Below, one piece after another: positions 16,709 through 64,000 of a stretch of 64,000 bases of DNA. Where the stretch lies: the NCBI GenBank assembly GCA_049199595.1, contig JBMCYV010000001.1, positions 46,778 through 110,777 of the forward strand, written 5' to 3'. The stretch comes from Candidatus Nitrosomirales archaeon (lineage in GTDB: Archaea; Thermoproteota; Nitrososphaeria; Nitrososphaerales; UBA213). The notes below the pieces were generated by a model. That model searched no databases. It had not been told where the DNA came from and was given only the letters and a program-made list of their open reading frames with translations. Within the stretch, counting starts at the first letter, position 1. Every line of letters begins with the position of its first letter. Made by a program: the position numbers and the translations under genes.

Positions 16709-16787
16709 ATCAAAATCAGTTGGTGATCAATGAATATGAAGATTATGTTTGCATTCTACACTGAAAATGAAAACTTGATTTTGGTTT

Positions 16788-17723: not shown

Positions 17724-17759
17724 AAAGTGTATGTATTCACGCATCATATAGCGATTGCG

Positions 17760-46677: not shown

Positions 46678-48411
46678 TCAAGGACTACCAGATTTGTCAG
46701 CACTGTTTAAAGCGAATTTCTGGATCCGGTTATTAGTAGTGTCAGCAACGTAGATGTTTCCAGTCTTGTCTAAAGCTACGCCATTTGGACCATGAAATTG
46801 ACCGTAGCTGTGACCACGAGCACCGAACTTGAATAGGAAGTTGCCAGTAGGATCAAAAATTTGAATGCGATGATTGTTCGTGTCGGCAACATAGATGTTA
46901 CCAGAGGCATCTAAAGCCAGAGCACTAGCACCATAAAGCTGACCTTCACGTGACCCAAACCTACCGAACGTGAATAGGAAGTTGCCTGTTGGATCGAATT
47001 TCTGAATCCGCTCATGTTCTCTATCAACAACACAGATGTTTTCTGAAGGATCCAGTACAAGGTTTGCTGGGGAGATAAACTGACCGTCCTTAGGACCCAG
47101 ACTTCCAAATTTGAGAAGGAATTTGCCAGTAGGATCCAGCTTCTGGACGCGGTGATTACCCAGATCAGCAATGTAGATGTTGCCTGCAGCATCTAGCGCT
47201 ATTCCGTTCGCGAAACTAAACTGACCATCCCCAGAGCCATGACTTCCAAACTTGAGTAGAAATTTGCCTGTTGGATCGAACTTCTGGATACAATCCAGTT
47301 CCCTATCAATCACATAGATGTTTCCTGAAGTATCAAGGGCCATGTTAACTGGAGAAAGGAACTGGCCGTCCTTATGACCACGCGTACCAAATTTGAGTAG
47401 TGGTTTGCCTGTTGGATCGAACTTCTGGATGCGATTATTGTTAGCATCTACAACGAAAATGTTACCAACTTCGTCCACTAGTACACCGGTAGGACCCCTG
47501 AACCGCCCGTCATCAGAACCGAAGGTACCAAACTTTGCCACCAGTTTGCCAGCCGGATCGAATTTCTGAATACGACCATTTTTTACATCAGCAATGTAAA
47601 AGGAACCAGAACTATCAATTGCTATACCAGACGCCTCAACAAACTGCCCATCGCCATAACCATGTGTGCCGAACTTGAGCTGGAAGACTCCGGTTGAATT
47701 GAATTTTTGTATACGCTGATTGTGTGTATCGGCAACATAGATGCTACCCATACCATCTACAACTAGACCACTTGCTCCGTTAAACTGACCATCTCCCTCT
47801 CCTTTAGTACCAAATTTGAGAAGAAAATTTCCAGCCGCATTGAATATCTGGATACGACTATTGTTTGTATCAGCGACGTAAATGCTACCGCTGCTGTCAA
47901 CTGCTACCCCTAAAGGTGATGTGAACTGTCCGTCGGCAGTGCCGATCTGACCAAATTTGAGCAGTAGTTTACCAGCTGGATCAAATTTCTGGATGCGATT
48001 ATTGGTAGTATCTGCAACGTAGATGTTTCCCGCATTGTCTACAGCTATACCATCTGGGCGAGCAAACTGCACGTCACCATGGCCAGGCGTTCCAAATTTC
48101 AGTAAAAAGTCTCCTGTTGGATCGAATTTCTGGATGCAGTTGTTGTTTGTGTCAACGACATAGACATTGTCATTACTGTCTACCGCTACACCTGCTGGAG
48201 TATTGAACTGTGCTTCACCATTGCCAAAGGCATTTATACGCCAGATCTCGCTTCCCGTAGGGGTCAATTTAACGAGCTGATGAGGGGTCGTTTGCGTTGC
48301 ATAGATGTTTCCGGAACGATCCACAGCGACATGTCCAACCGCTGTCAAGACAGGCTGTCCCGACGGAATACTAAACAAGAATCTAGGCTGCAAAGATTGA
48401 GGATTCTGCAC
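46678..48411 (-). CDS. NHL-repeat beta-propeller protein (~12 repeats)
   Basis: Repeated GQF..P.G.AVD..GNIYVADT.NNRIQKFD. Confidence 0.95.
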   Translation of the reverse strand: MQNPQSLQPRFLFSIPSGQPVLTAVGHVAVDRSGNIYATQTTPHQLVKLTPTGSEIWRINAFGNGEAQFNTPAGVAVDSNDNVYVVDTNNNCIQKFDPTGDFLLKFGTPGHGDVQFARPDGIAVDNAGNIYVADTTNNRIQKFDPAGKLLLKFGQIGTADGQFTSPLGVAVDSSGSIYVADTNNSRIQIFNAAGNFLLKFGTKGEGDGQFNGASGLVVDGMGSIYVADTHNQRIQKFNSTGVFQLKFGTHGYGDGQFVEASGIAIDSSGSFYIADVKNGRIQKFDPAGKLVAKFGTFGSDDGRFRGPTGVLVDEVGNIFVVDANNNRIQKFDPTGKPLLKFGTRGHKDGQFLSPVNMALDTSGNIYVIDRELDCIQKFDPTGKFLLKFGSHGSGDGQFSFANGIALDAAGNIYIADLGNHRVQKLDPTGKFLLKFGSLGPKDGQFISPANLVLDPSENICVVDREHERIQKFDPTGNFLFTFGRFGSREGQLYGASALALDASGNIYVADTNNHRIQIFDPTGNFLFKFGARGHSYGQFHGPNGVALDKTGNIYVADTTNNRIQKFALNSADKSGSP

Positions 48412-49881: not shown

Positions 49882-51018
49882 ATGAAACGTGATGACAAGG
49901 ACGTTAGTGAAGAGCCAAAGTCAGAAAGCAAGGTATTCACTCTTGAGGAAAGAGAAGAGATAGCGTTGAGCGAAGTAGAGAGCATGATGGACAGAGAAAT
50001 TCAGGACGCTATGCCTGAAACACCTGCAATAGATCTTACTGACATAGAAGCATGGATTAACACTGAACCGATATCTCTTGAGGACCAGAAAGGAAAGGTG
50101 ATCATGCTCGCTTTCTGGGCATATACTGACATATTCTGCCTGAGATCAATACCCATAGAACGCAAATTGTTCAAGAAATACGAGCAGTATGGCTTCAAGA
50201 TTATAAGTATACATTGTGCAGAGTATGAGTTTGCCAAAGATCTTTCGAACGTTAGGAAGGCTGTCGCAAAATACAAGATCGACTTCCCTGCTGCGGCCGA
50301 TAAGGAAAATAAAACCTGGCAGACCTATGGCAATATGTACATTCCAAAACATGTCCTGATCGACTCTACTGGAATGATTAGATATGAAATCGCGGGTTAT
50401 AGCAATATACGCGATTATGAGGTGCCGATATACGGATTACTTAGAGAAGCTGGCCAGCATCCTCCACCATACTTTGAAGATGAAGAACTCAAGGATGAGA
50501 TTTACGATATCTATGGGAGTCATTACTTGGGCACAACCGTACAAACTTGGGAAAGCTTGATACATCCTGTTTCTGTGGGATATGCAAGGACCAAACAATT
50601 TGGAAATTCTCAATGGGCAGAACGCGACAAGATAAATGAATTCAACGACTCTGGCCATCATCTTGACAAAGTTGTCTATCTTCGTGGAAAATGGTTCTGG
50701 GACAAAGAATGCGTAAGATTTGCAGGGAAGGCTGGTGACAATGCAGGAATCGTGATACCGTACAGCGCTAGAAGAGCAAATGCGATCCTAGGCACCCAAG
50801 ATGGTAAATCAGGAACCGTTGAGGTGAGTATTGATGGAAAATATGTGACAGAAAAATATTTTGGAAGCGATCTTAAAATCAAGGATGGAGTGAGTTATGC
50901 GGACATTCAATGGACTCACGTTCATAATCTCATAAAGACCGAAGAAGCAGAGACCCACGAAATAGAGATAATACCAAAAACGGAAAATATTGTATTTTAT
51001 GCATTCTTGTTTAGTTGA
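49882..51018 (+). CDS. Redoxin-domain protein with a DipZ-like C-terminal domain
   Basis: WINTEP..KGKVIMLAFWAYTDIFC and a C-terminal YAFLFS. Confidence 0.8.
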   Translation: MKRDDKDVSEEPKSESKVFTLEEREEIALSEVESMMDREIQDAMPETPAIDLTDIEAWINTEPISLEDQKGKVIMLAFWAYTDIFCLRSIPIERKLFKKYEQYGFKIISIHCAEYEFAKDLSNVRKAVAKYKIDFPAAADKENKTWQTYGNMYIPKHVLIDSTGMIRYEIAGYSNIRDYEVPIYGLLREAGQHPPPYFEDEELKDEIYDIYGSHYLGTTVQTWESLIHPVSVGYARTKQFGNSQWAERDKINEFNDSGHHLDKVVYLRGKWFWDKECVRFAGKAGDNAGIVIPYSARRANAILGTQDGKSGTVEVSIDGKYVTEKYFGSDLKIKDGVSYADIQWTHVHNLIKTEEAETHEIEIIPKTENIVFYAFLFS

Positions 51019-51135
51019 ACAGCATTGCATATATTTCCGAACTCCCAAAATATCATGATTTGAAAATTGTTGTCAGAATTGCGCAGAACAAGAATCAGGA
51101 AACGTTTATTTTGCACGTGATATTAATTCAGTTTA

Positions 51136-51786
51136 TTGACGAAGTTCACGGAGGAACAGATTAGATACGTACTAATGAATGTTAAAGACCCAGAAATCGA
51201 CTGTAACATTGTAGACCTTGGTTTGGTGTATGGAATTGGTGTTAATGAAAACAACGATGTGGATCTCAAGATTACGCTTACTAGCTTAGGCTGCCCTTTG
51301 ACTGAAACTCTGGTTAGAGACGTTAACAAAACTCTTGGGGCTATGCAAGGAATAGGAAAGATTGATGTTAAAATTGTTTGGGATCCTCCATGGACGCCAG
51401 AACGCATGACAGAGGAGGGTAAAAAGAAACTCGACTTACTTAGAAGCAGTGAAGCGCTGCGATTTATGATCGATTATGAAAAGACAAAGATCTTCAAGCA
51501 AGGAACCTCAGTGGTACTGAAAGACGGTTCTATAGAACTGCTTAATCCTGAGAATAAAAACTATGGAATAAACCAAGCACTTTTTGATCTGTGGTCTATA
51601 TGTGACGGGACAAAAACTGTCAACGAACTTATAGATATTTGCACAAAAAAATTGAATCTGCAAAGGGTAGATATGGAAAGAGATGTTGTTACATTGATCC
51701 AGCAGCTAATGGCTGTTGGTTTGATCAGGACTGAAACTCCGCCACCTGCTGATGAAATAAATACGTCAGAATCTAGTGTTCGATAG
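51136..51786 (+). CDS. DUF59 (SufT-like Fe-S assembly) domain fused to a PqqD-like domain
   Basis: VKDPEI..NIVDLGLVY, TLTSLGCP, WDPPWTPERM and LWSICDGTKTVNEL. Confidence 0.85.
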   Translation: MTKFTEEQIRYVLMNVKDPEIDCNIVDLGLVYGIGVNENNDVDLKITLTSLGCPLTETLVRDVNKTLGAMQGIGKIDVKIVWDPPWTPERMTEEGKKKLDLLRSSEALRFMIDYEKTKIFKQGTSVVLKDGSIELLNPENKNYGINQALFDLWSICDGTKTVNELIDICTKKLNLQRVDMERDVVTLIQQLMAVGLIRTETPPPADEINTSESSVR

Positions 51787-52507
51787 GACAATCGTTGGGA
51801 TCATTATCAGGGCTCTCGGCCTGTATCCATTTTTGGACTTTCTCGAATGGTTCAATGAATCCAGGTCTTACATTAAGCTCCTTGAGGTCCTTGTTTACCA
51901 GCTCTATGGTTGATCTTGACAGCACCTTGTAAAACTCGACTTCACTTTTATGGTTAATCAAAGTGCAAAATGTTGGGCCCCACCTACCTATGTGATCCTT
52001 GAGAAACTTCTTGCGCGCTTCTAAGCAAACATTAGCCTTGTCTTCCCAAGCCTCATTCTTGGCATATGCTTCTTTGATCATCAAGGTAGCCATAAAATCG
52101 AGTTCGATGCTGACGTGATCTGCCCTCTCGCCCTGTGAATCTTTTCCTAGTTCGACCTCAAATGCCCTGTAAAACCCGTTTAGATCTGCAAGTTCTTTGG
52201 TCTTCGCAAAGATAGTATCCATGGCATATTCTGTCTCATACATCGGTATCAGGATAGTTTCCCCAACGCCAAACAAGCGGTCATACTCTTCCCCCAATCC
52301 CGCCAAGGAGTGCGCCTCAATACTCTGATCTAGTGCATTGCTGATCGAACGTTCGAACCCAGGTACTGCACTTTCATTCTCTTTTCTTGCGGCCAAAAAT
52401 GATGTTATAGATGTTAACCAGTTCTTGTCAGGATACATGAAACCGTATGCCGCGAGCTGATAAGATCTTGCTCCTTCCAATAATCCTTCAAGTTCGCCTA
52501 CTTGCAA
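51773..52507 (-). CDS. TorD/DmsD/NarJ-family molybdoenzyme chaperone
   Basis: EEYDRLF, YETEY, ERADHVSIELDFM and FLKDHIGRW. A TTG start just after the gamma-subunit stop was chosen. Confidence 0.9.
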   Translation of the reverse strand: MQVGELEGLLEGARSYQLAAYGFMYPDKNWLTSITSFLAARKENESAVPGFERSISNALDQSIEAHSLAGLGEEYDRLFGVGETILIPMYETEYAMDTIFAKTKELADLNGFYRAFEVELGKDSQGERADHVSIELDFMATLMIKEAYAKNEAWEDKANVCLEARKKFLKDHIGRWGPTFCTLINHKSEVEFYKVLSRSTIELVNKDLKELNVRPGFIEPFEKVQKWIQAESPDNDPNDCPIEH

Positions 52508-52511
52508 AGTT

Positions 52512-53669
52512 TCACTTTGTAATCGTTGGCGCTGCCTTTCGTCTTGATGCGTAGAATATCGCAGCCGCAACCACAGCACCGACGCCAATAATGATAGCAG
52601 GTATCAACATGCCTGAACCTCCTCCATCGCCACCTCCGCCACCGGTAGTAGTTCCGGGAGTGGTTCCGTCTCCACCTCCGTTACCTGCTGGAATCCCCGA
52701 GCCTCCTTCTATCGCAAGAGTATGCCATAGTGCTACTGCCTTTCTACCATTAACTTCTCTATTTCCTCCATCCCATACCGCTACAGCCATATCCGTATTC
52801 TTTCCTGCATGGAACTGTGCATCGGTAGGGTCTTCGGTCAACATGGACCTTGCTATCACGACCTTCCACATTCCGTTGTCATACATACCCTTTCCAAACG
52901 AGTCCTGATGCTGCTGACTAGTCAAAGTTCCAAAGCCCTCTGCCACCAGCTCTTCTATAGGTGTCTGCCTAGGAGCGTCTCTCGTTGAGAACGAATTACC
53001 TGCAGCATAGCCAGGTAGATACATCTTGCTTACATCTTCAACAGGAACCCGAGGGTTTTGTGGATCGTTATAACCACCTTCTACGCCCTGAAATCGTCCG
53101 TTACCTTGTGCAGCTAGATCCTTATCTCCTACGTAAAAGTCATAAGCCATGTTAGGATATGCGTCTTGGCGATCCAAGTATCGTCCCATGTCTACATCTT
53201 TTTGCCAGTCTGCTTTCCAGTGCAAAATATTAACTGGCGTACCCGGACCTCCCATCGCTATGAAGGTCTTTGCATCAGTCACTGGGAATACTACAGCGAT
53301 AGCATCTCTAAACTGATTTGTGTTAAGAGCCATGAAAGATTCTGACGGATCAGACCATTCCAGCATCCATCCTATCCATGTACCATTGTTAACTGATCTA
53401 ACATTAACAGAGCTTACGGTAGGATTGAACAAAATAGGTATTGTAATATTTTGACCCATTACCTTGAACTCCGTTGCTGGTGCTTTATCCCACAGTGATG
53501 CCGTAGGATCTACAGGCAGATCTCCGTCTATCGCTATTGATGTTATCTTGGGTCCATCTCCTCCGCTAAAAGTTCCTAGAATTTGAGCTTGGACAACAAT
53601 AGGTGAGAGAATTAGAATACCTGCTAGAACAATCGGCCCTAATAGAACCGTTCTTGTTGTGAGCCCCAT
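52512..53669 (-). CDS. EbdC/NxrC-like heme-b gamma subunit with a C-terminal membrane anchor
   Basis: Sec-type signal, LEWSDP, FRDAIAV, candidate Met ligand in IAMGG, AVAVWDGGNREVNGRK (candidate Lys ligand), Gly-rich linker and TM helix. Confidence 0.85.
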   Translation of the reverse strand: MGLTTRTVLLGPIVLAGILILSPIVVQAQILGTFSGGDGPKITSIAIDGDLPVDPTASLWDKAPATEFKVMGQNITIPILFNPTVSSVNVRSVNNGTWIGWMLEWSDPSESFMALNTNQFRDAIAVVFPVTDAKTFIAMGGPGTPVNILHWKADWQKDVDMGRYLDRQDAYPNMAYDFYVGDKDLAAQGNGRFQGVEGGYNDPQNPRVPVEDVSKMYLPGYAAGNSFSTRDAPRQTPIEELVAEGFGTLTSQQHQDSFGKGMYDNGMWKVVIARSMLTEDPTDAQFHAGKNTDMAVAVWDGGNREVNGRKAVALWHTLAIEGGSGIPAGNGGGDGTTPGTTTGGGGGDGGGSGMLIPAIIIGVGAVVAAAIFYASRRKAAPTITK

Positions 53670-53678
53670 CTAATCACC

Positions 53679-54812
53679 CTATGATGTGTTGTGTCTGAAG
53701 CTTGGTCTTATGATGAAAGGCTCCATGATAGGAACTCTTATGATTTCATGCCCCGCCATGTCATACCCAATAGCATCCTTTTCGGTAACTCTGAAACGTT
53801 CAATGATCTTCTGCGTAGTTCCAAATAATTGCAGTACCCCTAGCGTTTCATGATCGGGTTCTGTGTAGTTCTTGATGGCAGTATCTACTCCAGGGCCAAA
53901 CATCTGATCCTGATAGGATTTTGGCACCCAGCGCGGCGGTATGTAGTAAATGTTTCCTTCACAACCGTACTGTGGATAAAGTGGCAACGCAATCTTCGCA
54001 ATGTGTGCAAGATAGTCCATTGGGCTGTCAGGAATTGCTTCATCAGGGGGCTTGATCCAACCCTGCAGTCTTATCTTTCCAACACAAGCAGCTATACACC
54101 TTGTGATTATTCCTTGTTCAACTCTGGGATAGCAAGCGATGCACTTTTCGCTTACTCTTGTTACTGGATTGTACAATGATTTTCCATAAGGACAGCCTGT
54201 TACACATTCTCTGTACCCTCTGCAGCGGCCCTGGTCAATTAGCACAATACCATCTTCAGGACGCTTGTATATGGCCTTCCTCGGACATACTGAACCACAT
54301 GAAGGATAGGTGCAGTGATTACAGATTCTCTGCAAGTAGTGGAAGAAATTCACGTGGTATGGAGCCTCTGGATCCTCCAAGTCAGCATGAGATGAGAATA
54401 CCTCGCCATCCTTAAGCGTAGATGCACCCACGTCTTGATACCAGTTGGGGAACCTCCAGTCCTCTTCTGGCTTGATGACACCAAGGACCTGTTTGCCCTC
54501 TGGTGCAGCTTCGTATATCGTCTTGCCCTTGTAAACACCGTTCGTCCAAGTCTGACCATCACCTAACAGCTTTAGTATCTGGATATCCCAAAAGTGCGGA
54601 TAGCCACCATAAGGCTTTGTTTCGACGTTGTTCCACCACATGTGCTCCTGACCCTTGCTAAACGTCCATGTGGACTTGCATGCCATCGTACAGGTCTGGC
54701 AGCCTATGCAGCGGTTTATGTTGAATACTGCGGCAAATTGTTTCTTTGGTCTTACACCCTCAAATGGGTAGAACATTTCCCGCCCAATATGCCAGTTATA
54801 TACCATTGGCAT
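53679..54812 (-). CDS. nxrB: NxrB/NarH-like Fe-S beta subunit
   Basis: VYNWHIGREM..FNINRCIGCQTCTMACKSTW..WWNNVETKPYGGYP, RICNHCTYPSC and EKCIACYPR. Confidence 0.85.
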   Translation of the reverse strand: MPMVYNWHIGREMFYPFEGVRPKKQFAAVFNINRCIGCQTCTMACKSTWTFSKGQEHMWWNNVETKPYGGYPHFWDIQILKLLGDGQTWTNGVYKGKTIYEAAPEGKQVLGVIKPEEDWRFPNWYQDVGASTLKDGEVFSSHADLEDPEAPYHVNFFHYLQRICNHCTYPSCGSVCPRKAIYKRPEDGIVLIDQGRCRGYRECVTGCPYGKSLYNPVTRVSEKCIACYPRVEQGIITRCIAACVGKIRLQGWIKPPDEAIPDSPMDYLAHIAKIALPLYPQYGCEGNIYYIPPRWVPKSYQDQMFGPGVDTAIKNYTEPDHETLGVLQLFGTTQKIIERFRVTEKDAIGYDMAGHEIIRVPIMEPFIIRPSFRHNTS

Positions 54813-57800
54813 CTATTTTCTCAACCCCTGTATCTGAACGAACTGTCCCCTCAAATACTTTTTCATGTCATCATTTTCATAGCCCGGAGTGTATCCAGTC
54901 TGTACTGGATCCCACATACCTACGCCGCCTATTCCACCATTCTCTGCCTTTGTTATCTTCACTAGTGTTTCCTTTGGACACGTATTAGGCGCATGAGTAT
55001 CATATTCATATCCTTCAGCTATCTTCCATCCCCATAGATCCTTTCTTGCTATAGTGTCAGTCATCAGAGTAGGCTGCAGATATGCCCTCGTAAGTGCCTG
55101 ATGACTACCATACCTGAACTTTGCCTGATATCCCGTATCTGCGGATTTTGCTAACCCATCTGCTCTGGTCTCGTGTGCCTTTACTGATTTGTGAGAAGCC
55201 ATCCATGCTGAGTGCTTCATCATTGTTACATGCTTTGGATACCCTGGATTGAACGTAACACGCAGCATGAGTCTAGCAACTTTATAGTCTTCGGTTCCTT
55301 CCTTCCATCCAATGTAAGGTCTGTCTACTGGATTAGCATCAAGGTGTACATAATCGCCGTCGTTTATTCCAAGTTCCTTTGCAGCATCAGGATTAATGTG
55401 CAGCTGATGCTCACCGATACCTGGAGTTCTTTTATCATGTCTCAATGGATCACCATAGTTGTTCTCCCAAATAAGCAGCCAGTCTGCGACACCCCATGAT
55501 GAGTGAACCGTGTAACGAGACTTTGGTGTCAAGACGTAGAACCTGTATCCTTGCTCCCACAGCGGACTAACAGTATTCTTCACCTTGTCCCAACCCATCT
55601 TTATGTTCCTAACCTGTATCTCATCCATGTCGGTAGAGGCAGGTGATATACCATAATCATCGGGTCTTATCCATGGATGCTCAGCAACAATCACATTAGG
55701 AAGATGTGGAGTCGCCTCCGGTGGTTCCCTGAAGACTACCATGTTCTCTCCATACTCTATGAACTCGGGCTCGTCCCTATACAACTCCAGTCTTCCGCTC
55801 TTGTTATAGAACGGCTTGCTTTCGTTGATCTCTTCCCACCCTGGAACTCTCGGATACGTTCTGTACATCACGAACCAACCAACATCCGAGTCTAAGATGT
55901 CATTTACGTTATAGCCTCTAAGATTGACTGCAGCGTCAAACACTCGCTGGATGTAAACCTCACTTCTATCCTCCTTAATAAATTTCCAGTAGTCATTAAA
56001 TCTCTGGTCTCCTGTTAGCTCTGCGAGTTTATCAGAGACCATAGCGTAAATCTCGTTATCTCCTACCGTGTTGAAGAGTGGAGGAATACCACCTCTCCAT
56101 ATGAATACAAATGGATTCGAGTTTGATGTAGCCCACTCAGGTTGTGAGATCTCTACCCATGAGGATACAGGGAACACAACATCAGCATATTCACAGCTAC
56201 CAGTCCACTCCCAGTCGTTGTAAATAATCATCTCCTCGTGTGGATATTGGTTGAACAAAACATTGTAAGCCCACTTTGAGTTGTTAAACGTGTTTGCGTT
56301 TACGTGCCACTCGACCTTCGTTGGTGCTGGCATGTGAGTTTTTCCTGTGAACACCTTTCTTCCATATTTTGGCGTATTGACAACCAGCGGCCCCTCTGTC
56401 TGTCCCGTAGTTACTGACGAATAGTTCCAGTACTGTATCTCTTCCTTGTGGGCGTACCTGTGTACCTTGATTTCCCTACCGTCAACTGTTGGATCTAGTG
56501 TTATGTTGAAGGGATCTTCGACAACCCAAGGTGCAAATCCCGTACCTACAGATGATGTTCTATATGTGCCAGCCCAGTGACCATAGTTTGCTCCTGGTTT
56601 TCCGACATTACCTGTTAATGCTAAAACCATCCAAAGAACTCTATCCTTCTGATCATTGTGGAAGTAGTGGTTTGTGCCTTCACCAGTGTGGATCTGGACA
56701 GGCTTTATGGTGCCAAAGTCCCTAGCAAGTCTTGGGATTAGATGTGCTGGAGTTCCACTCATCTCTGCTGTTTTATCAACATCATACTCTGAACAAAGCT
56801 CTTTGTATAATTGGAATACTGTCTTGACATCGATCTCTTTGCCGTCTACTAACTTCACCTTGAACGTACCCTCTAATGCTGGGTCAACGCCAAGTTTATC
56901 AAACCATGCACCGACATCATCCCTAGTGACCACTGCAGGCTTGTTGGTTACTCTGTCCCAAACAACGCGGTCGCCCCACTTCTCCCTTAATTCCGGCAAT
57001 ATAACTTGAGGACCGAGGTTCTCAAGTGTCTTGTTCTTATAGCCTTTAATTATGTCGCTTGCATGCAGGAGCTTTAGTGTGTCTCCTCTAACAAGCAACG
57101 GGAAGTCTGTGAACCTCTTGACGAATGGTTCATCGTAAAGTTTCTCCTGAATTATTACATTGCAAATTCCCATGAATAAAGCCACATCAGATCCTGGACG
57201 GACAGTCAACCAATAATTAGCCTTTGACGCGGATGGACTCATCTCGGGTGACACTACGACTATCTTGCCACCTCTTTCGATTATTTCAGTCATCCAGTGC
57301 GCTTCGGGCATCTTGTTCTCAATAAAGTTCTTACCAACAAGTACATACAATTTAGCATTTCTGTGATCAGAAAATTCTGGGTCAAATGTCTGTATTCCAG
57401 TTACCAGAGGAGTGCCTGGGTCAAGGTCGCCGTGCCAAGTATAGTTCGACCAGTATCTTGCTCCTCTAGCTTGCTCAGGTGGAACACCACGTATGTGTTG
57501 ATCAAGCAAAGCCATAACGTTGGCGGTTCTAATATGCCCTATCTTTGCAGAACCGCCCAGCATTGGCATGCCTGGACGGAACTTGAATGTCTGAACACCA
57601 GCTATTGTATCCGTCTCTGTTGGGTGGTGTATCGCCCAATTACCTTTCATTGACTCTATCATTTCTTCCGGATAACCTTCTTCTCTGAGTCGTTGAGCTC
57701 CTTCCTCTCCAGAATATTTCTTGGCTACATGCAAAAGTGTCCTTGCAACTACTTCAGCTGCTTCCTCATACGTCATCTTCACCCACGAATCTTTACCCCT

Positions 57801-58301
57801 TTGGAAATATTTCTCTTGATTCTCTGGCTGTCTTGGATCGGGATAACCTGCATTGACCCAATCAAGCCAGCCTTTTCGCACCATAGGTGCTTTAATTCTG
57901 TAAGGACCATAAACACGTCTAGTGATAGCGTAACCCTTTAGGCAACCTCTAGGATTCCATGCAGCTGTTGCAACGTTTCCATAAACATCTCTGTACTTTT
58001 GATGATCATAAGACTGCTCAACTCTTGTAATAATTCCGTTTCTTACAGCAGCTGTCAACCTGCAGTTGTGAGTATCATTTGGCGTACAGTTAAAACGGAA
58101 TTCACGGTCAAATCTGTAAATATTTCTATAAACTTCTTCCCAACTTCTATCAGGATAAGACTCGATTGGATTCTGAACTTTGGTAGCTTTTGTTGGCTCG
58201 AAGAGTTTCAAACCAGAGCTCGCGCCTGTACCGAGAGCTGCTAGTCCAACACCAGATGCACCAGCAATTTTCAGGAAGTCTCTTCTAGTAACTTCCATCA
58301 A
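54813..58301 (-). CDS. nxrA: Tat-exported Mo-bisPGD alpha subunit, periplasmic NXR/nitrate-reductase type
   Basis: TRRDFLK Tat motif, FS0 CTPNDTHNC..NPRGCLKG, WSNYTWHGD Mo-ligand Asp, KNFIENKMPEAHW and TPKSRYTVHSSW. Confidence 0.85.
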   Translation of the reverse strand: MMEVTRRDFLKIAGASGVGLAALGTGASSGLKLFEPTKATKVQNPIESYPDRSWEEVYRNIYRFDREFRFNCTPNDTHNCRLTAAVRNGIITRVEQSYDHQKYRDVYGNVATAAWNPRGCLKGYAITRRVYGPYRIKAPMVRKGWLDWVNAGYPDPRQPENQEKYFQRGKDSWVKMTYEEAAEVVARTLLHVAKKYSGEEGAQRLREEGYPEEMIESMKGNWAIHHPTETDTIAGVQTFKFRPGMPMLGGSAKIGHIRTANVMALLDQHIRGVPPEQARGARYWSNYTWHGDLDPGTPLVTGIQTFDPEFSDHRNAKLYVLVGKNFIENKMPEAHWMTEIIERGGKIVVVSPEMSPSASKANYWLTVRPGSDVALFMGICNVIIQEKLYDEPFVKRFTDFPLLVRGDTLKLLHASDIIKGYKNKTLENLGPQVILPELREKWGDRVVWDRVTNKPAVVTRDDVGAWFDKLGVDPALEGTFKVKLVDGKEIDVKTVFQLYKELCSEYDVDKTAEMSGTPAHLIPRLARDFGTIKPVQIHTGEGTNHYFHNDQKDRVLWMVLALTGNVGKPGANYGHWAGTYRTSSVGTGFAPWVVEDPFNITLDPTVDGREIKVHRYAHKEEIQYWNYSSVTTGQTEGPLVVNTPKYGRKVFTGKTHMPAPTKVEWHVNANTFNNSKWAYNVLFNQYPHEEMIIYNDWEWTGSCEYADVVFPVSSWVEISQPEWATSNSNPFVFIWRGGIPPLFNTVGDNEIYAMVSDKLAELTGDQRFNDYWKFIKEDRSEVYIQRVFDAAVNLRGYNVNDILDSDVGWFVMYRTYPRVPGWEEINESKPFYNKSGRLELYRDEPEFIEYGENMVVFREPPEATPHLPNVIVAEHPWIRPDDYGISPASTDMDEIQVRNIKMGWDKVKNTVSPLWEQGYRFYVLTPKSRYTVHSSWGVADWLLIWENNYGDPLRHDKRTPGIGEHQLHINPDAAKELGINDGDYVHLDANPVDRPYIGWKEGTEDYKVARLMLRVTFNPGYPKHVTMMKHSAWMASHKSVKAHETRADGLAKSADTGYQAKFRYGSHQALTRAYLQPTLMTDTIARKDLWGWKIAEGYEYDTHAPNTCPKETLVKITKAENGGIGGVGMWDPVQTGYTPGYENDDMKKYLRGQFVQIQGLRK

Positions 58302-58610
58302 TAGAGATTATCCCTTGCCATATACCCTACGTCCTCATCAGGTTATTCGAATGGCAAATATATAAATTTTTTATAACGCTGTTTTTTCTGTATTCATTTG
58401 TAGCTTTCAAACTCCTGTTTATGATCCTATTTTGCAATAATTATAAATCACGTTCAAATATTTGCACTTGAGTATTTATAGTGAAAATACGCACGGATTA
58501 GGCTGCTTAGTACGCTGATGATCCTGAAATCATGGTTTATCACACGAACCTACAATCTAGAGATCGCAATGGATATAAGTAACAAAGGACGAAATTAAAA
58601 TAGAAGTTGC

Positions 58611-58919
58611 ATGGTCACAGAAATGATTCCTCTTTTTGTCATGGGAATGGAGTGGATATGGTTGATTGTCATAGGTGGTATAGTGATCTTTGGAGCCAAG
58701 AAGATACCAGAACTTGCCAGATCTTTGGGAAAGGCTCAAGGTGAATTCGAGAAAGGCAAGATCCAAGGTACTAAAGAAGCAAAGGAGCTGCTGAATTCTT
58801 CAGACGATCATTCGAAACTCGTAAAGGCGGCCGAGTCATTGGGGTTAGAAACTGAAGGGTTAAGTGATCAACAGCTGAAGGACGCCATAAGCAAAGCAAC
58901 ATCAAAACCAGGAAACTGA
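58611..58919 (+). CDS. tatA: Twin-arginine translocase TatA
   Basis: GMEW..IFGAKKIPELARSLGKAQGEFEKG, divergent from nxrA. Confidence 0.9.
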   Translation: MVTEMIPLFVMGMEWIWLIVIGGIVIFGAKKIPELARSLGKAQGEFEKGKIQGTKEAKELLNSSDDHSKLVKAAESLGLETEGLSDQQLKDAISKATSKPGN

Positions 58920-59132
58920 TTTATCGAAAGTAATCAAGTTCAAGGGAGTTCCTAGGAATGACTTTGTTCTTAAAACACACACTAACGTATTATGTTTTAT
59001 CAAAAATGATGTTGGCACGCGTTCAAGATTTACTCTTCGTTATCCAATGCCCCATAACTACTTTCAAAAGATACGTTCTCGTCAGTGATCTTCACTAGGC
59101 CGCTAATACCGGTTAGTCCTTTAATAAGATGC

Positions 59133-59681
59133 TTACGAGCTTTTTTCTGGTCTTATGTTAATGTCAGTGCTACAATACGAACAGTATACGAGCTCAAGTC
59201 CGCCAGTCTTCATTTCCTCGCCGTTTATAGATACCATTGCATAAAATTCCGTCCAATCAGCCTCAGCTTCAGTTTCTCCTTTCATTAGATCGCTAGGTAT
59301 CACATCTACTGAGCACTCGAATCTAGCTGCTGTTTTAACGGTAACGGAAGTTGTACATGTACCAACTGATACATCTGGAGTTATTGGAGCTGTCCACAGG
59401 TGATCCACTGCTTGATGAGCATCTTCAAACATATCTGTGTCCATAAACTCTACAGAGATGTTATACTTACCATCTTCGTATATGTATCCTATCAAAGTCA
59501 AAGTAGTTGTCTGACCCTCTTCCACTACATTTGGACTAGCGACAACGTAAGCATAAGAGTCCACCGCATTGGCCGAAATCAGCGTAGTTGAAAATCCCAG
59601 CATAGAAATCACTGAAATGCCGAACAACACCTTTACAATCTTCCCTATGCGCGTCTTACCCAACCCATGATTCTGTATCAT
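59133..59681 (-). CDS. Hypothetical secreted protein
   Basis: Signal-like N-terminus and a C-terminal CSYC. Confidence 0.55.
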   Translation of the reverse strand: MIQNHGLGKTRIGKIVKVLFGISVISMLGFSTTLISANAVDSYAYVVASPNVVEEGQTTTLTLIGYIYEDGKYNISVEFMDTDMFEDAHQAVDHLWTAPITPDVSVGTCTTSVTVKTAARFECSVDVIPSDLMKGETEAEADWTEFYAMVSINGEEMKTGGLELVYCSYCSTDINIRPEKSS

Positions 59682-59787
59682 GTTACTGCCTGCACTACCG
59701 AGTTGGTACTAGATAAATTTTTACTTTTAGACCTCTGCAAGAAATCATGTCTAAACTAACTAGTGAACTAGCATCCGATTCTAACTG

Positions 59788-60855
59788 TCAGGGCTGAACA
59801 CCGTGGTCAAATGCCAAATGACCTTGATAGTCAATATTGCAAATACCCACCCCACAATACTCACACTGACGGTCGATCTTATTTTCCTTGCATTTGGCAC
59901 AAAGCTGGGACTCTTCTTCTGATTTTTCCTCCGCTGCATCAACAGTAACAGCCTCTGGCAAGGAAGTTCCAAGCACCTGAATACGATTGTTACCTGAATC
60001 AGCGACTATAACACTACCAGTGCTACTTACAGCTACACCACGCGGAAAACTAAACTCGCCCTCTTTGGAGCCCATGGTACCTAATCTGAGAAGGAATTTA
60101 CCTGTTGGATCGAATTTCTGTATACGATTGTTGTACGTGTCGGCAACGTAGATATTTCCTTCTTTGTCTAATGCTACACCGCGTGGAAAGTTAAACTGGC
60201 CTTCATCAGAGCCCAGAGTACCTATTATCGCTAGGAATTTGCCCGTAGAGTCGAATTTCTGGACGCAGTTATTGTTCGCATCTACAACGTAAACATTGTT
60301 TTCAACATCAAGTGCCAATCCAACAGGAGAACTAAACTGACCTGGAACATAACCACCGCTGCCGAACTTGAAAATGAATTTACCTGTTGAGTCGAACTTT
60401 CTAATACAATGATTGTTTATGTCATTAATGTAGACGTTACCTTCTTTGTCCAATGCCACACAGTTTGGCTGACTAAACTGTATATCACCAGCACCACCAA
60501 ATTTGAGAAGGAATTTACCTGTTGGATCGAATTTCTGTACTCGAGAATTTTTTGTGTCAGCGACGTAAATGCTGCCTTCTTTGTCCACTGCTACACCGTG
60601 AGGGCTGTTAAACTGACCGTCGCCAGAACCGATATCGCCAAATTTTAGGAGTAGCTTACCAGTTGGATCGAATTTCTGTATACGATTATTCCTCGTATCG
60701 GCAACGTATATGTTGCCTTCCTTATCAACAGCTATACCAAAAGGCTGACCGAATCGTCCATCGTCAGAACCAGATCTACCGAATGCGAAAGAACGCATCG
60801 GTGCTTGACTGACTGACTGCTCGCTGCTCGGGTTCTGACCCTGGCCTTGACTCAT
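59788..60855 (-). CDS. NHL-repeat protein (6 repeats) with a C-terminal zinc-finger-like motif
   Basis: NHL repeats, then CAKC..CEYC..C..D..H..H. Confidence 0.9.
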   Translation of the reverse strand: MSQGQGQNPSSEQSVSQAPMRSFAFGRSGSDDGRFGQPFGIAVDKEGNIYVADTRNNRIQKFDPTGKLLLKFGDIGSGDGQFNSPHGVAVDKEGSIYVADTKNSRVQKFDPTGKFLLKFGGAGDIQFSQPNCVALDKEGNVYINDINNHCIRKFDSTGKFIFKFGSGGYVPGQFSSPVGLALDVENNVYVVDANNNCVQKFDSTGKFLAIIGTLGSDEGQFNFPRGVALDKEGNIYVADTYNNRIQKFDPTGKFLLRLGTMGSKEGEFSFPRGVAVSSTGSVIVADSGNNRIQVLGTSLPEAVTVDAAEEKSEEESQLCAKCKENKIDRQCEYCGVGICNIDYQGHLAFDHGVQP

Positions 60856-60904
60856 AATTTCTATGACTCTCTAGCCAATATTCAACCTTGCGGTATTCAG
60901 CACG

Positions 60905-61453
60905 CTACTTTGCAATCAGTACCTCTGTTGCCTTTACTATCGCCGTGACCTTGTCCCCAACCTTAAGTTCCAGATCGTTAGCCGCGTCACTTGTTATCAG
61001 CGAAACTATGCTTATAGGTGTAGAGCATTTGATCTCAACATGCGCTACCACAGAATCTTTTTTGATCTTCGTAACCTTGCCTACAATCTTATTTCTGGCG
61101 CTAATCTTAAGACCCAACGCTTCCCAAAACCCTTCATCTTTTACTACTCCCTTTATGCCCTTGGTGACCCTCTGATACTCTCTAACTATGTCAGAACCCT
61201 TCTTGCTTAATGTTACAAGTCCACCTCCTCCCTTGCCGCCCCTTGATCTCAAGAGAACTTTCGTTCCTAGTTGCTTCTCTAACTTGCCTATCAAATTCCA
61301 CGCATGACGAAACGATATCGACATCGCTTTAGCTGCATGTGATATGGATTGTTTTTCTCCAATTAGGCTCAGTAGTTCCAAGGTCTGTGGATCTACCCGA
61401 AGGCCTTTGTCAAGTTTTACCCAAACTCTTGGCTCTGAAATGAATCTTCTCAA
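60905..61453 (-). CDS. modE: ModE-like regulator (winged HTH plus TOBE domain)
   Basis: SISHAAKAMSISFRHAW, RGGKGGG, SARNKIVGKV and KATEV motifs. Confidence 0.9.
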   Translation of the reverse strand: MRRFISEPRVWVKLDKGLRVDPQTLELLSLIGEKQSISHAAKAMSISFRHAWNLIGKLEKQLGTKVLLRSRGGKGGGGLVTLSKKGSDIVREYQRVTKGIKGVVKDEGFWEALGLKISARNKIVGKVTKIKKDSVVAHVEIKCSTPISIVSLITSDAANDLELKVGDKVTAIVKATEVLIAK

Positions 61454-61456
61454 TTC

Positions 61457-61519
61457 TCGCTATGTAATCTTATAGCGAAATGTATTTATGCGTTGCGTTA
61501 TGAACAATAGTTCATAACA
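61457..61519. promoter_or_regulatory. Two palindromes, candidate ModE operators
   Basis: TCGCTAT-N8-ATAGCGA (61457-61478) and GTTATGAAC-AATA-GTTCATAAC (61497-61518). Confidence 0.65.
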
Positions 61520-61527
61520 ATGCATGC

Positions 61528-62526
61528 TTGGAGGAAATATCAGCCTTGACTAAGGGTGTAATTACAGTATCTATAGTTGTAGCATTATCAGCGATTGCAA
61601 GTATATTGTTTATAACGGAACAATACTCACAAGCATCTCCCAGAGGTGAGGTCTTCGTAATGTATGCAGGTTCTTTAGTAAAAACATTCGAGAACACTCT
61701 TGGGCCGTCGTTTCAAAGTGAGACTGGTTATACTTACATCGGCGAAGGCAAAGGTTCTGTACAGCTAGCAAATATGATAATTGATCAGCAAAGGCGTCCT
61801 GATATCTTCGTAAGTGCAGGCACTGTCCCTATCAAGAGGCTGATGGACAACAAACCTGCTTTAGCTCATTGGTTAGTGAAATTTGCTACCGCTGAAGTTG
61901 TAATAGCTTACACACCCAATAGTCCTTTCTTTGACGATTTGGAGAAGGCTAGAAAAGGAGAACTATTGTGGTACGAGGTTCTTTCCGAGGACGGTCTAAA
62001 GTTCAGAAGGACTGATCCTGAGCTGGATCCAAAGGGGTACTATACTATCATTGTTGCCAAGCTTGCTAACATGCATTATAAAGATCCAACGATCAAGGAC
62101 AGGATCCTAGGTGCTGATAGAAATCCTGAACAGATCCTACCAGAAGAGACACTGAAGACCGCGTTGCAGCAGGGTCAGATCGATGCCGCTGCTGCTTACA
62201 AACATGAAGCTGTGGCGCGAGGGCTTCCATATATCATACTGCCGAAGGAGATCAATCTTAGCGATCCCTCGTTCTCCAACTTTTACAAAGAGGCTTCATA
62301 CACTCTAGGTTCAAGTGTAACAGTTTATGGAGATATTATCCCATTCTGCATTACTATACCAGAAACAAGCAAGTATCTTGATGGCGCTATAGCTTTCATG
62401 AAATTCTTGCTCTCTGAGAAAGGCGCGAGCGTGCTTGAGCGCGATGGGTTGTATCCTATTACCATTGAAGCAGAGGGTGACCTTGAAGAAATTCCCTCTG
62501 CCATAATTGATATTGTTGGAGATTAA
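61528..62526 (+). CDS. wtpA: Molybdate/tungstate ABC substrate-binding protein (WtpA/ModA)
   Basis: YAGSL, GSV, DPELDPKGY and YKHEA motifs. Confidence 0.85.
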   Translation: MEEISALTKGVITVSIVVALSAIASILFITEQYSQASPRGEVFVMYAGSLVKTFENTLGPSFQSETGYTYIGEGKGSVQLANMIIDQQRRPDIFVSAGTVPIKRLMDNKPALAHWLVKFATAEVVIAYTPNSPFFDDLEKARKGELLWYEVLSEDGLKFRRTDPELDPKGYYTIIVAKLANMHYKDPTIKDRILGADRNPEQILPEETLKTALQQGQIDAAAAYKHEAVARGLPYIILPKEINLSDPSFSNFYKEASYTLGSSVTVYGDIIPFCITIPETSKYLDGAIAFMKFLLSEKGASVLERDGLYPITIEAEGDLEEIPSAIIDIVGD

Positions 62527-62531
62527 TATCG

Positions 62532-63338
62532 ATGCAAAAAGAATCGTCAGGCATTTCGAGGACGAGGGGCACGGGATTCGGTATTTTATTCTTGATTTTA
62601 GCGGGAGCTCTGGTTGCATACATAGCCTACCCTATTGTCAACATCGTTACCATCACAGATCCTGCAACACTTCTGGAGTCTATTACAAGACCTCAGGTCG
62701 GCAGTGCGTTCTTACTCAGCTTGGCCACTGCAACGATCTCAACTCTTCTTCTTGCAGTATTCGGGATACCGCTTGCGTACACGCTAGCAAGATATGATTT
62801 TCGGGGCAAGCTTCTGCTGAGGCTTGTTGTAATCCTTCCTCTAGTGATCCCACCCCTAGCAAGCGGTGCATTACTCTTAGGAATATTTGGTCCTTATACT
62901 CCTCTAGGAAAATCATTCTCCTTGGAGTTCACCCAGTCGCCTTTAGGTGTCATTATCGCCCAGATCTACATCTCTTCTCCCTTCATGATCCTCTTGTCTC
63001 AATCAGCGTTCGAATCTGTCGATCAATCTTATGAAAAAGTTTCTAGAGTTCTCGGGAAGAGCAGATTTCAAACATTTCTGCATGTTACACTTCCACTTGC
63101 AAAGACAGGAGTAATGGCGGGGATAATCATGTCATGGGTCAGAGCTGTAGGAGAGCTAGGAGCTACCATGATGTTGGCCTATAACCCTCATACTATATCC
63201 ATACAGATCTTCGAAGATAACGCAATTGGAGGGCTTGAACAAACTGTTCCTGGTATACTGCTGGTCATTCTTCTGTCGTTCATGGTATTAGCTGCTTTTT
63301 CCATTGTAAATAAAGGCGGATTGAGGTTGGGCTGGTGA
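62532..63338 (+). CDS. wtpB: Molybdate/tungstate ABC permease
   Basis: LPLVIPPLASG, EAA-like loop and RAVGELGAT. Confidence 0.85.
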   Translation: MQKESSGISRTRGTGFGILFLILAGALVAYIAYPIVNIVTITDPATLLESITRPQVGSAFLLSLATATISTLLLAVFGIPLAYTLARYDFRGKLLLRLVVILPLVIPPLASGALLLGIFGPYTPLGKSFSLEFTQSPLGVIIAQIYISSPFMILLSQSAFESVDQSYEKVSRVLGKSRFQTFLHVTLPLAKTGVMAGIIMSWVRAVGELGATMMLAYNPHTISIQIFEDNAIGGLEQTVPGILLVILLSFMVLAAFSIVNKGGLRLGW

Positions 63339-63342
63339 TTCG

Positions 63343-64000
63343 ATGGGATTAGAACTCGTTAACATAATGAAGAATTTCACTGATTTTAAACTGGGGCCCT
63401 TCAATCTGAAGATCGATAACGAGGTCTTGGTGCTGATTGGTCCTACCGGCAGCGGGAAAACTACTATACTCAACCTGATTGCTGGGATGGCAAATCCTGA
63501 TGCAGGATCAGTAATACTAGACGGTTCAGACATTACCAATGTACCGGTAGAATCCAGGAGAGTCGGTTACGTCTTCCAAACTCCAAGCTTATTTCCGCAT
63601 CTGAATGTCTACGAAAACATTATCTTTGGTCTTCCGAAGGTAAAGAGAAAAGAAAAGAGTCTTCATGTTAAGAAACTCTTGGACGAACTTGGAATTTCAC
63701 ACCTTTCAGATCGCAGAGTTCAGGGCTTAAGCGGAGGAGAGATGCAGAAAATTTCCCTAGCAAGAATGCTCGCTGTAGAACCGACGATCATACTACTAGA
63801 CGAACCTCTAGCACATTTAGATCCTCCTACAAGAAGAAAGCTGCGGCTGGAGCTGAGGAGAATTCTCAGAAAGCAAGGCGTTCCAGTGATCTACGTAACT
63901 CATTTCGAGGACGATGTATATGCTCTTGCTGACTCTGTGGCAGTATTACATGAAGGTATGATAGAAAAAACAGCAAGACTTGAAACGATCTTGGAATCAA
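63343..64000 (+). CDS. wtpC: ABC ATPase (WtpC/ModC), partial, runs off the window end
   Basis: Read manually: MGLELVNIMK..GPTGSGKTT, LSGGE and LLDEP. Confidence 0.85.
   Translation, partial: MGLELVNIMKNFTDFKLGPFNLKIDNEVLVLIGPTGSGKTTILNLIAGMANPDAGSVILDGSDITNVPVESRRVGYVFQTPSLFPHLNVYENIIFGLPKVKRKEKSLHVKKLLDELGISHLSDRRVQGLSGGEMQKISLARMLAVEPTIILLDEPLAHLDPPTRRKLRLELRRILRKQGVPVIYVTHFEDDVYALADSVAVLHEGMIEKTARLETILES

Follow-up and report, generated by a model that had tools for sequence, protein, structure and literature searches.

The stretch of DNA analyzed here, 64,000 nucleotides long and called the window throughout, covers positions 46778-110777 of contig C1 in a 2.31-Mb archaeal genome (63 contigs, 99.87% complete, 0.64% contamination). 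On its minus strand, at 51773-58301, the ORF list of the window gives four adjoining open reading frames (ORFs) for the alpha, beta, gamma and delta components of a molybdenum (Mo) oxidoreductase. We consider it very likely that this operon is intact and that it encodes an outward-facing Mo nitrite:nitrate oxidoreductase of the lineage to which the anammox and Nitrospina nitrite oxidoreductases (NXR) belong, in a family of ammonia-oxidizing archaea (AOA) that matches Candidatus (Ca.) Nitrosomirales. An earlier note on this DNA, made from the letters and their translations, had described four contiguous genes for an alpha subunit with a twin-arginine translocation (Tat) signal, an iron-sulfur (Fe-S) beta subunit, a heme-b gamma subunit and a TorD chaperone, and both the ORFs and our family scans bear this description out.

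Enzyme type and phylogenetic position

The top solved relative of all three structural subunits is the nitrite oxidoreductase of Kuenenia stuttgartiensis (PDB 7B04). Alpha matches chain 7b04_B with 1348.6 bits over residues 2-1157, beta matches 7b04_A with 423.9 bits over residues 1-372 and gamma matches 7b04_C with 129.8 bits, while for alpha a type II enzyme follows NxrA as the next PDB entry, with 210 bits, and E. coli NarG reaches 137 bits. The gene order, taken together with 1349, 424 and 130 bits to three chains of one complex, lies far beyond chance. The best NCBIfam models are those for the subunits of type II dimethyl sulfoxide (DMSO) reductases (TIGR03479/03478/03477/03482), and all four scores are under the curated cutoffs (bits/cutoff in subunit order: 336/985, 252/481, 151/170 and 81/152); judged by these scores, the operon is best classed as a relative of the curated type II subfamily (SerA/PcrA/EbdA/Ddh) that stands outside its membership. 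A canonical NarGHI nitrate reductase was considered and rejected: the narG model TIGR01580 gives alpha 150.5 bits against a cutoff of 1084, the first Fe-S site (FS0) reads C-x3-D-x3-C, alpha bears a Tat signal, and the third gene encodes an EB_dh/EbdC-like protein with one C-terminal helix, as opposed to a di-heme cytochrome b of the NarI type.

The ligand residues point the same way. In the Kuenenia NXR, FS0 is held by C67, D71, C75 and C115, N70 faces the substrate, D275 binds Mo, and M155 and K305 bind the gamma heme (PMC8387239). Mapped through HMMER alignments, as the earlier note had proposed for the substrate channel, the window alpha has its FS0 ligands at C72, D76, C80 and C120, its substrate-facing Asn at N75 and its Mo ligand at D292, N75, D76 and D292 matching N70, D71 and D275 of Kuenenia; in the same way M139 and K310 of gamma line up with the heme ligands M155 and K305. 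These residues of alpha and gamma are invariant in seven Nitrososphaerales sequences, and a Met/Lys heme of this kind is called high-potential in PMC8387239. The published description of the Kuenenia NXR-ABC complex (7B04) is thus matched in the alpha-beta-gamma composition, the Tat signal of alpha, the 3Cys/1Asp FS0, the Asn, the Mo-binding Asp and the Met/Lys heme; the two differ in that the window gamma has a C-terminal membrane helix past a Gly/Thr-rich linker, and in that the window host is an aerobic archaeon as opposed to an anammox bacterium. With the periplasmic NXR of Nitrospina the window enzyme shares the lineage, the exact ENKMPEAHW and WSNYTWHGD motifs and the outward-facing site, although the two sit in separate subclades.

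The motifs quoted beforehand are all present in the translations, namely FNCTPNDTHNC, WSNYTWHGD and KNFIENKMPEAHW in alpha and MPMVYNWHIGREM in beta. The earlier note had taken them as hallmarks of the NXR clade, and this stood as far as placement in the anammox/Nitrospina lineage is concerned; as a sign of nitrite oxidation it did not, for what the motifs single out is a lineage with over 500 loci spread over many phyla, cultured nitrate reducers included. In a 40-row alignment the first Fe-S site is H-x3-C-x3-C in haloarchaeal pNarG, in ClrA and in both NarG rows (Paracoccus and Thermus), the latter as had been said of canonical NarG, whereas the NXR-type rows that cover the site have C-x3-D-x3-C in 28 of 33 cases and Cys in place of Asp in the other 5 of 33. 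The more distant Halobaculum row likewise has Cys at the Asp position, and the Natronococcus frame is without the FS0 part of the alignment. Since coordination of FS0 by Asp or by His is found in both enzyme types, following lineage (PMC8387239), the FS0 motif marks lineage and not the direction of the reaction.

For the phylogeny, one genome per species was scanned, which gave 539 loci with relatives, and the best 80, none of them from Nitrospira, were kept. The loci come from Planctomycetota (including Brocadiales), Chloroflexota, Ignavibacteriota, Nitrospinota, Omnitrophota, Binatota, Hydrothermarchaeota and others. Annotated plasmid genes served as outgroups (the NarG of Paracoccus and of Thermus, Haloferax narG, ClrA, the Halobaculum enzyme and the Natronococcus frame), and the positions of Nitrospira, Nitrotoga and Hydrogenobacter, which are absent from the tree rows, are taken from papers. 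Alpha trees were built with FastTree (90 rows) and with quick IQ-TREE searches under LG+G4 (40 and 44 rows) and under a C20 mixture (32 rows, 1122 columns), the IQ-TREE support being the Shimodaira-Hasegawa-like approximate likelihood ratio (SH-aLRT) only. Identity to the window alpha is 82-85% in family members, 60.7% both in a Brocadiales metagenome-assembled genome and in a Thaumarchaeota record (L033), 50-51% in Nitrospina, 44% in the genomes G011/G035, 42% in Natronococcus, 34.5% in Halobaculum and 25-26% in NarG, pNarG and ClrA.

In the alpha trees the window sequence, its family and four metagenome clusters (77-86% identity) form one clade with support 100, and the next relatives are further Nitrososphaeria-labeled and unlabeled sequences at 59-64% identity (support 100 in two alpha trees, the 44-row and the mixture tree). 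The window clade and the anammox-, Nitrospina- and Natronococcus-type enzymes fall into one group (99-100), apart from Halobaculum, from pNarG/ClrA and from NarG. Within that group the archaeal clade joins the anammox-type and Nitrospina-bearing clades with an SH-aLRT of 90-93 only, in three alpha trees; the mixture-model tree resolves the base of the group no further than a five-way polytomy, with the Natronococcus-type clade as one branch, and the row L046 shifts position between trees. The beta tree (36 rows, in which two loci lack a beta because their contigs end and the rows L053 and L075 show extraction artifacts) has five Nitrososphaerota betas as a clade (SH-aLRT 98), sister (90) to a clade with the anammox-type and Nitrospina rows. 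Taken together, these comparisons support a grouping of alpha and beta with the anammox/Nitrospina-type enzymes, far from NarG, with a lineage base that is without resolution; the NXR assignment of the earlier note thus agrees with both phylogenies and with alpha identities of 61% and 51%, as against 25% for NarG.

Two archaeal systems deserve a closer comparison. The narGH cluster of Haloferax mediterranei (L114) is likewise archaeal and exported, with an EbdC-like gamma and a TorD-type chaperone in the cluster, but its alpha has 25.7% identity to that of the window, its FS0 is H-x3-C-x3-C, and its operon holds Rieske and cytochrome b genes of its own, none of which stand beside the window operon. 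The Natronococcus-type clade (including G011, G035, G047 and G085, which belong to the order of the window host) has the same four-gene layout, alpha identities of 42-45% and C-x3-D-x3-C in G011 and G035, yet forms a separate clade with support 100; once the anammox and Nitrospina rows are included, these are nearer to the window (51-61%) than is Natronococcus (42%). A Nitrotoga/Hydrogenobacter 'sister clade' is described in PMC6050957, and we infer that the Natronococcus-type clade corresponds to it, no such rows being in our trees. As to Natronococcus itself, the alpha-like frame of 1068 amino acids (aa) at 5001-8195 of plasmid 2 of N. occultus (L113) has no gene in the plasmid table; it is without the N-terminal signal and the FS0 part, and it lies beside beta-like, TorD-like and cbb3-type oxidase subunit I genes.

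The gene cluster is already known for the lineage under another name. A paper of 2024 (PMC10811736) had already described the operon in Ca. Nitrosomirales, calling it a 'putative nitrate reductase narGHIJ' and linking it to formate; this is in keeping with the mention in the earlier note of nitrate reductases reported in some deep AOA lineages. We regard the published cluster and that of the window as one and the same, in one lineage, the published account having in common with ours a four-gene operon, a PolD-less AOA host, FdhA alongside, and soil and groundwater as habitats, and differing in that its narI is here an EbdC/NxrC-type heme-b protein (EB_dh). Neither 'nxr' nor 'nitrite oxidoreductase' occurs in the main text of PMC10811736, whose supplements (Fig. 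S6B) may show more. Periplasmic- and cytoplasmic-type narG have been described in Nitrososphaeria that do not oxidize ammonia (PMC10833072), and our literature search returned no report that names the AOA enzyme NXR-type or proposes nitrite oxidation by these archaea; PMC10579303 and PMC13326497 do not bear on this lineage. The source labels of the relatives read 'nitrate reductase alpha subunit', 'molybdopterin-dependent oxidoreductase' and, twice, 'nrxA'. What is new here is therefore the enzyme type, the host distribution (0/235 in the other three AOA families searched) and the wiring, the cluster itself being not new. According to PMC8387239, Kuenenia NxrA stands at ~60% to the enzymes of nitrite oxidizers and of complete ammonia oxidizers (comammox), at 40% to those of Nitrotoga and Hydrogenobaculum and at ~20% to NarG, and the window alpha is as near to anammox NxrA as the enzymes of bacterial nitrite oxidizers are reported there to be (~60%).

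Integrity, host and distribution of the operon

The operon lies about 98 kb into the 148-kb contig C1, which carries archaeal housekeeping genes (CDC48, archaeal GdhA, LeuA, IlvB and H+-PPase). In two sequencing runs that may be the source samples, contigs made by a different assembler bridge both operon ends (51353-54212 and 54325-60116 in run X1; 49891-53585 and 56812-60094 in run X2), and the depth of both runs is flat over operon and flanks. A groundwater run of another study gives contigs about 95% alike over 53191-59087, and a soil run of a further study gives small identical contigs in the operon and in both flanks. Moreover, three genomes of the same family, each from a different genus (G006, G007 and G008), keep the operon in the same neighborhood at 82-84% alpha identity, the shared neighbors being a ModE-like regulator, a Wtp-like transporter, an NHL-repeat protein, a 182-aa secreted protein, TatA and a thioredoxin-like protein. 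Because bridging contigs at flat depth, the runs of other studies and syntenic family genomes all agree, the operon is no assembly join, and a chimeric contig, which the earlier note had asked to be checked through coverage and contiguity, is rejected.

The composition of the operon is nevertheless odd. Its G+C content is about 46% as against about 42% in the flanks, and its tetranucleotide correlation to the genome (r = 0.79, the median being 0.92) puts it in the bottom 2.5% of 321 genome windows, which fits an old transfer or a strong protein constraint and could also be expected of misassembled or misbinned foreign DNA or of a silent relic. We regard this last explanation as hardly credible, since the contigs of two independent runs cross both ends at even depth, the gene order is repeated in three other family genomes, the block sits deep inside a contig on which archaeal housekeeping genes are found, all four frames are uninterrupted and retain the ligand residues, and NxrA (81-84%) and NxrB (88% in the two full-length relatives) exceed in conservation 13 of the 13 flanking proteins compared (43-78%).

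That the host is an ammonia oxidizer of the Nitrososphaeria, as the core genes around the operon had suggested, is confirmed by the same genome, which contains archaeal amoA (350 bits), amoC (55 bits) and amoB-like frames (28 and 32 bits), all over their cutoffs. The genes amoA, amoC and one amoB-like frame stand side by side on contig C5; the nxr operon on C1 is in the same bin, the nearest relatives of both contigs lie in one family (f1), and the pairing of amo with an NXR-type enzyme recurs in three other bins. A second amoB-like frame of 192 aa (G000:C22:19317-19670, G000 being the host genome; 32 bits on PF04744) lies away from the C5 cluster. The genome further holds one heme-copper oxidase subunit I (COX1) and a NirK-like frame that is under its model cutoff.

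One fair reading of family f1 is that it corresponds to Ca. Nitrosomirales. We detected amoA in 8/8 other f1 genomes and in the families f8, f12 and f15, and did not find it in 16 other sampled families of the order. The large subunit of PolD (PF03833, the only subunit scored) is present in 0/9 f1, 0/3 f8, 2/2 f12 and 2/2 f15 genomes, and a tree of AmoA, a single protein of 216 columns, unites f1 and f8 (100/97) to the exclusion of f12 and f15, without resolution inside f1; f8 would then be Nitrosocaldaceae. Ca. Nitrosomirales is described in PMC10811736 as sister to the thermophilic ammonia oxidizers and as lacking PolD, like Ca. Nitrosocaldales and unlike other mesophilic AOA; it lives in soil, groundwater and springs, and its terrestrial members have fdhA and the 'narGH' operon. 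The runs holding the stretch are labeled soil and groundwater, and none of those listed is an RNA run. Since the PolD pattern, the habitats and the joint occurrence of fdhA with the nxr operon match that account, f1 is probably this lineage.

Of the 401 genomes of the order that were searched, 13 gave a strong alpha match (E <= 1e-150), and among the ammonia-oxidizing families the enzyme is confined to f1, with 4/9 genomes including that of the window, as compared with 0/11 in f8, 0/112 in f12 and 0/112 in f15. Carriers that do not oxidize ammonia possess either the same type (G017 at 61%, G014 and G072 at 59% in partial frames, G024 at 56%) or the Natronococcus type at 44-48% (G011, G035, G085, G047 and G044). 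In G003, a family genome scored as without NxrA, the contig that carries the TatA region (C45 in L131, region 8289-8756) breaks off 168 bases beyond TatA, at the very point at which the syntenic genomes have the start of nxrA; 4/9 may therefore be a lower bound for f1, and 'absent' was rejected as a reading for this genome. A collection of 5.8 billion proteins holds just four 90%-identity clusters at at least 77% identity to the window alpha.

Operon parts, the Mo/Tat island and candidate electron partners

Table 1. Features of the operon and of the adjoining part of the window (window positions)
Feature	Positions	Strand	Remarks
alpha (NxrA/NarG-like)	54813-58301	-	1162 aa; PF00384 86 bits; Tat signal
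beta (NxrB/NarH-like)	53679-54812	-	377 aa; Fe-S protein; Fer4_11 95 bits; own signal peptide absent
gamma (NxrC/EbdC-like)	52512-53669	-	385 aa; heme-b; EB_dh (PF09459) 96.6 bits
delta (TorD/NarJ-type assembly chaperone)	51773-52588	-	longest ORF 271 aa; Nitrate_red_del PF02613 71 bits; TIGR03482 81 bits
intergenic region nxrA/tatA, divergent	58302-58610		A+T-rich
TatA, twin-arginine pore subunit	58611-58919	+	PF02416 40 bits; divergent from nxrA
ModE/Mop-like molybdate-responsive regulator	60905-61453	-	Mop 57 bits (cutoff 55); ModE 66 bits, below cutoff
WtpA/B/C-like molybdate/tungstate ATP-binding cassette (ABC) transporter	61528-64000	+	best matches, all under curated cutoffs; last gene exits window

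The alpha frame starts with TTG and has an ATG one codon inside, at 58298, and its residues 5-11 (TRRDFLK) form the twin-arginine signal. For delta the most likely start is the TTG at 52509-52507, 5 bases past the gamma stop, because the resulting product of 244 aa fits the 240 and 244 aa of two relatives. From N to C terminus gamma consists of a hydrophobic signal, the EB_dh heme-b domain, the Gly/Thr-rich linker and a single membrane helix. Because alpha has a Tat signal and gamma has both an N-terminal hydrophobic signal and a C-terminal helix, the active site of the alpha/beta/gamma complex is predicted to be on the outer face of the membrane. The intergenic region in front of alpha, in which a stretch resembling TTTATATA lies some 60 bases upstream of where alpha starts, probably serves as the promoter region.

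At the operon's other end, a fusion of a SufT/FeS-assembly-like and a PqqD-like part (51136-51786, plus strand) is convergent with the chaperone gene and overlaps the delta end by 14 bases; its homologue in G007 is about 5 kb off the operon. NHL-repeat beta-propeller proteins with ScyF-like matches occur on both sides (46678-48411 and, on the minus strand, 59788-60855), and in three family genomes one NHL-repeat gene lies between the Mo transporter and TatA.

The operon opens an island of about 23 kb (G000:C1:98550-121256, that is window 51773-64000 and 10 kb beyond; L130), in which it is followed by TatA, the ModE/Mop-like regulator, the WtpABC-like transporter, MoaC/MoaB, MoaE, MoaA, MoeA, a polyferredoxin-like protein of 488 aa and TatC. 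As annotated from sequence, the island appears to be all that is needed to make and export an enzyme with a Mo-bis-pterin cofactor. TatC is on C1 as well, 15 kb beyond TatA, whose position is kept in three relatives; the Wtp-like transporter genes are syntenic in G006, and MoaA is over its cutoff in 6/9 family genomes, including all four enzyme carriers. Two other neighbors were considered as enzyme-specific partners and rejected by their distribution: the 182-aa secreted protein next to TatA is shared by G003, a genome that yielded no NxrA, and the thioredoxin-like protein is present in 9/9 family genomes.

The subunits, ligand residues, signals and clustered genes for Mo uptake, cofactor synthesis and Tat export are read directly from the DNA, and from these parts a route of assembly may be pictured. 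The delta chaperone would retain alpha in the cytoplasm during insertion of the Mo-bis-pterin cofactor and of FS0, after which alpha would take beta outside via TatA/TatC, and the exported alpha-beta pair would dock onto gamma, the heme-b protein anchored by its one C-terminal helix. Electrons would travel between Mo and a carrier of the host, probably a blue copper protein, by way of FS0, four Fe-S clusters and heme b, in a direction that is discussed below.

The operon flanks that were read in ammonia oxidizers contain no gene for an electron carrier, be it a c-type cytochrome or another. In bacteria the partner carriers of periplasmic NXR are cytochromes c. The neighborhoods of other archaeal carriers are more informative in this respect. 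In the non-oxidizer G017 (contig C82 in L015) the operon is directly downstream of a set of genes on the same strand (12227-17771) for coxB, a fused coxA/C, a small frame, a plastocyanin-like cupredoxin and a nitrilase. The G017 operon also has, between alpha and beta, a frame of 92 aa without a family (L015 8356-8634) that has no counterpart in the window. A membrane protein of about 310 aa and about eight helices follows delta in G017 (L015 4479-5414) and in G024 (L016 8835-9788); the two copies are 30% identical, without a Pfam match, and the protein was not found in the f1 family loci. In two hosts from different families, G014 (L020, contig C68, 1095-3550) and G047 (L126, contig C8, 2-1168), a Fer4_5 membrane protein and a small COX2/cupredoxin-like protein stand directly upstream of alpha, the Fer4_5 proteins being 54% identical over 257 aa (the G014 copy has 658 aa) and the cupredoxins 41% identical. 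Matches of the cupredoxin queries in the window genome are all weak, two of them beside its own cox genes on contig C17 and one on C11. It is tempting to propose that the archaeal enzymes of the NXR group exchange electrons with blue copper proteins, and that the version of the ammonia oxidizers has been reduced to alpha-beta-gamma-delta and couples to the general copper carrier pool of the host.

Direction of the reaction in vivo

The direction in which the enzyme runs is not readable from sequence, a caution already expressed in the earlier note and upheld here, and the chemistry is reversible, the Kuenenia NXR working both ways in vitro (PMC8387239). The use toward which we lean, tentatively and a little short of even confidence, is that of a respiratory nitrate reductase in oxygen-poor periods. 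Electrons would pass from NAD(P)H or formate to quinol, complex III, the copper carrier, gamma and finally nitrate, and such a respiration would let otherwise strictly aerobic AOA persist in nitrate-rich soil and groundwater. A flow from formate to nitrate under anoxia has been proposed for the lineage, which occurs in nitrate-rich groundwater (PMC10811736). In agreement with this, the alpha subunit of formate dehydrogenase (FdhA; over the cutoff of TIGR01591) is present in 3/9 f1 genomes, all of them NXR-positive; the host copy (G000:C3:73666-75690; L122 7667-9691) has 674 aa and 798 bits on TIGR01591, with no obvious gene for a partner subunit beside it. The Fer4_5 and cupredoxin module of G014 and G047 looks like a quinol-side feed to the enzyme. 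Furthermore, Caldinitratiruptor microaerophilus, which was isolated for nitrate reduction, holds a homologue of 54% that branches within or near the base of the lineage, and the lineage is rich in likely anaerobes.

Several observations weigh against nitrate respiration. The nearest characterized enzymes, those of anammox bacteria and Nitrospina, oxidize nitrite in vivo. With its one heme-copper oxidase the host appears to be an aerobe; no anaerobic energy source is evident but formate, and neither a cytochrome bd nor a formate channel of the FocA/NirC type was found in the 99.87%-complete genome. FdhA was not found in the enzyme carrier G008 (97% complete), and the operon of the ammonia oxidizers lacks both the 8-helix and the Fer4_5 protein, neither of which has a homologue in the window genome, so that no dedicated quinol link is seen. 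Finally, formate dehydrogenase and NXR are also paired in the nitrite oxidizer Nitrospira (cited in PMC10811736), so that their co-occurrence does not discriminate between the two directions.

Nitrite oxidation is the next reading in order, and we hold it to be possible, with a confidence that stays clearly below even. Here the enzyme would oxidize, on its outer face, the nitrite derived from the host's own ammonia oxidation, and the archaeon would be a complete nitrifier, the archaeal counterpart of comammox; electrons would leave the gamma heme b for a blue copper carrier, which would hand them to the heme-copper oxidase, and the route might be reversed under anoxia with formate, as in Nitrospira. 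The enzyme itself speaks for this, with 61% identity to a Brocadiales enzyme and 51% to Nitrospina (Natronococcus reaches 42%, NarG 25%), with 1349 bits to Kuenenia NxrA, and with the grouping near the anammox/Nitrospina clades in three alpha trees (SH-aLRT 90-93) and in the beta tree, and so does its Met/Lys heme, which is high-potential by the account of PMC8387239. The host adds to the case in that amoABC, the enzyme and a heme-copper oxidase are in one genome, and in that an aerobic cell releases nitrite on the very face where the enzyme sits. Several of the points just raised against nitrate respiration turn in favor of nitrite oxidation: the operon is without a quinol-side module, no FocA-type channel was found, and G008 has the enzyme with no detectable fdhA; the G017 operon, moreover, stands beside oxidase genes and a cupredoxin. 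Oligotrophic habitats such as groundwater are also where complete nitrification is predicted to pay. The lineage is reported as abundant in groundwater (PMC10811736).

What tempers this reading is that the same lineage comprises more than 500 loci in many phyla, with many likely anaerobes and with cultured nitrate reducers, that the Kuenenia enzyme is reversible in vitro (PMC8387239), and that the enzyme is accessory in the family, in 4/9 genomes. Nor does the phylogeny settle on the nitrite-oxidizing neighbors, as the lineage base is poorly ordered: an approximately unbiased (AU) test does not reject a tree in which Natronococcus, G011 and G035 are joined by five Nitrososphaerota rows (p = 0.566), and this constrained Natronococcus-type joining even lies 5.9 log-likelihood units above the quick free search. 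The fuller proposition, namely that a subclade of this fourth AOA family is a complete nitrifier and would comprise the first nitrite-oxidizing archaea, with a formate-driven reversal when oxygen runs out, seems to us on the unlikely side from the genomic evidence at hand.

Use of another oxyanion (chlorate, perchlorate, selenate or similar), or a detoxification of nitrite without energy gain, is improbable: relatives of the type II DMSO reductases accept many different substrates, the general type II alpha model comes out first in NCBIfam at 336 bits against a cutoff of 985, and no curated model names the lineage, but the substrate-facing Asn, the Asp that binds Mo and the FS0 with 3 Cys and 1 Asp are as in the nitrite/nitrate enzyme, identity is 61% to anammox-type NxrA as against 25% to ClrA, and the flanks read contain no chlorite dismutase gene, whereas cld adjoins clrA in the ClrA plasmid locus.

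To our knowledge, nitrite oxidation is known from bacteria only. If it were carried out by these archaea, the division of nitrification among the organisms of groundwater and soil would change, as would the reading of ratios of ammonia oxidizers to nitrite oxidizers and the evolutionary account of complete nitrification. If instead the enzyme serves nitrate respiration, as we tentatively prefer, it would be the first respiratory alternative to oxygen for AOA, and it would bear on their survival in the anoxic subsurface and on the supply of nitrite and nitric oxide (NO) there. In either direction, the lineage becomes a defined target for enrichment and tracer studies.

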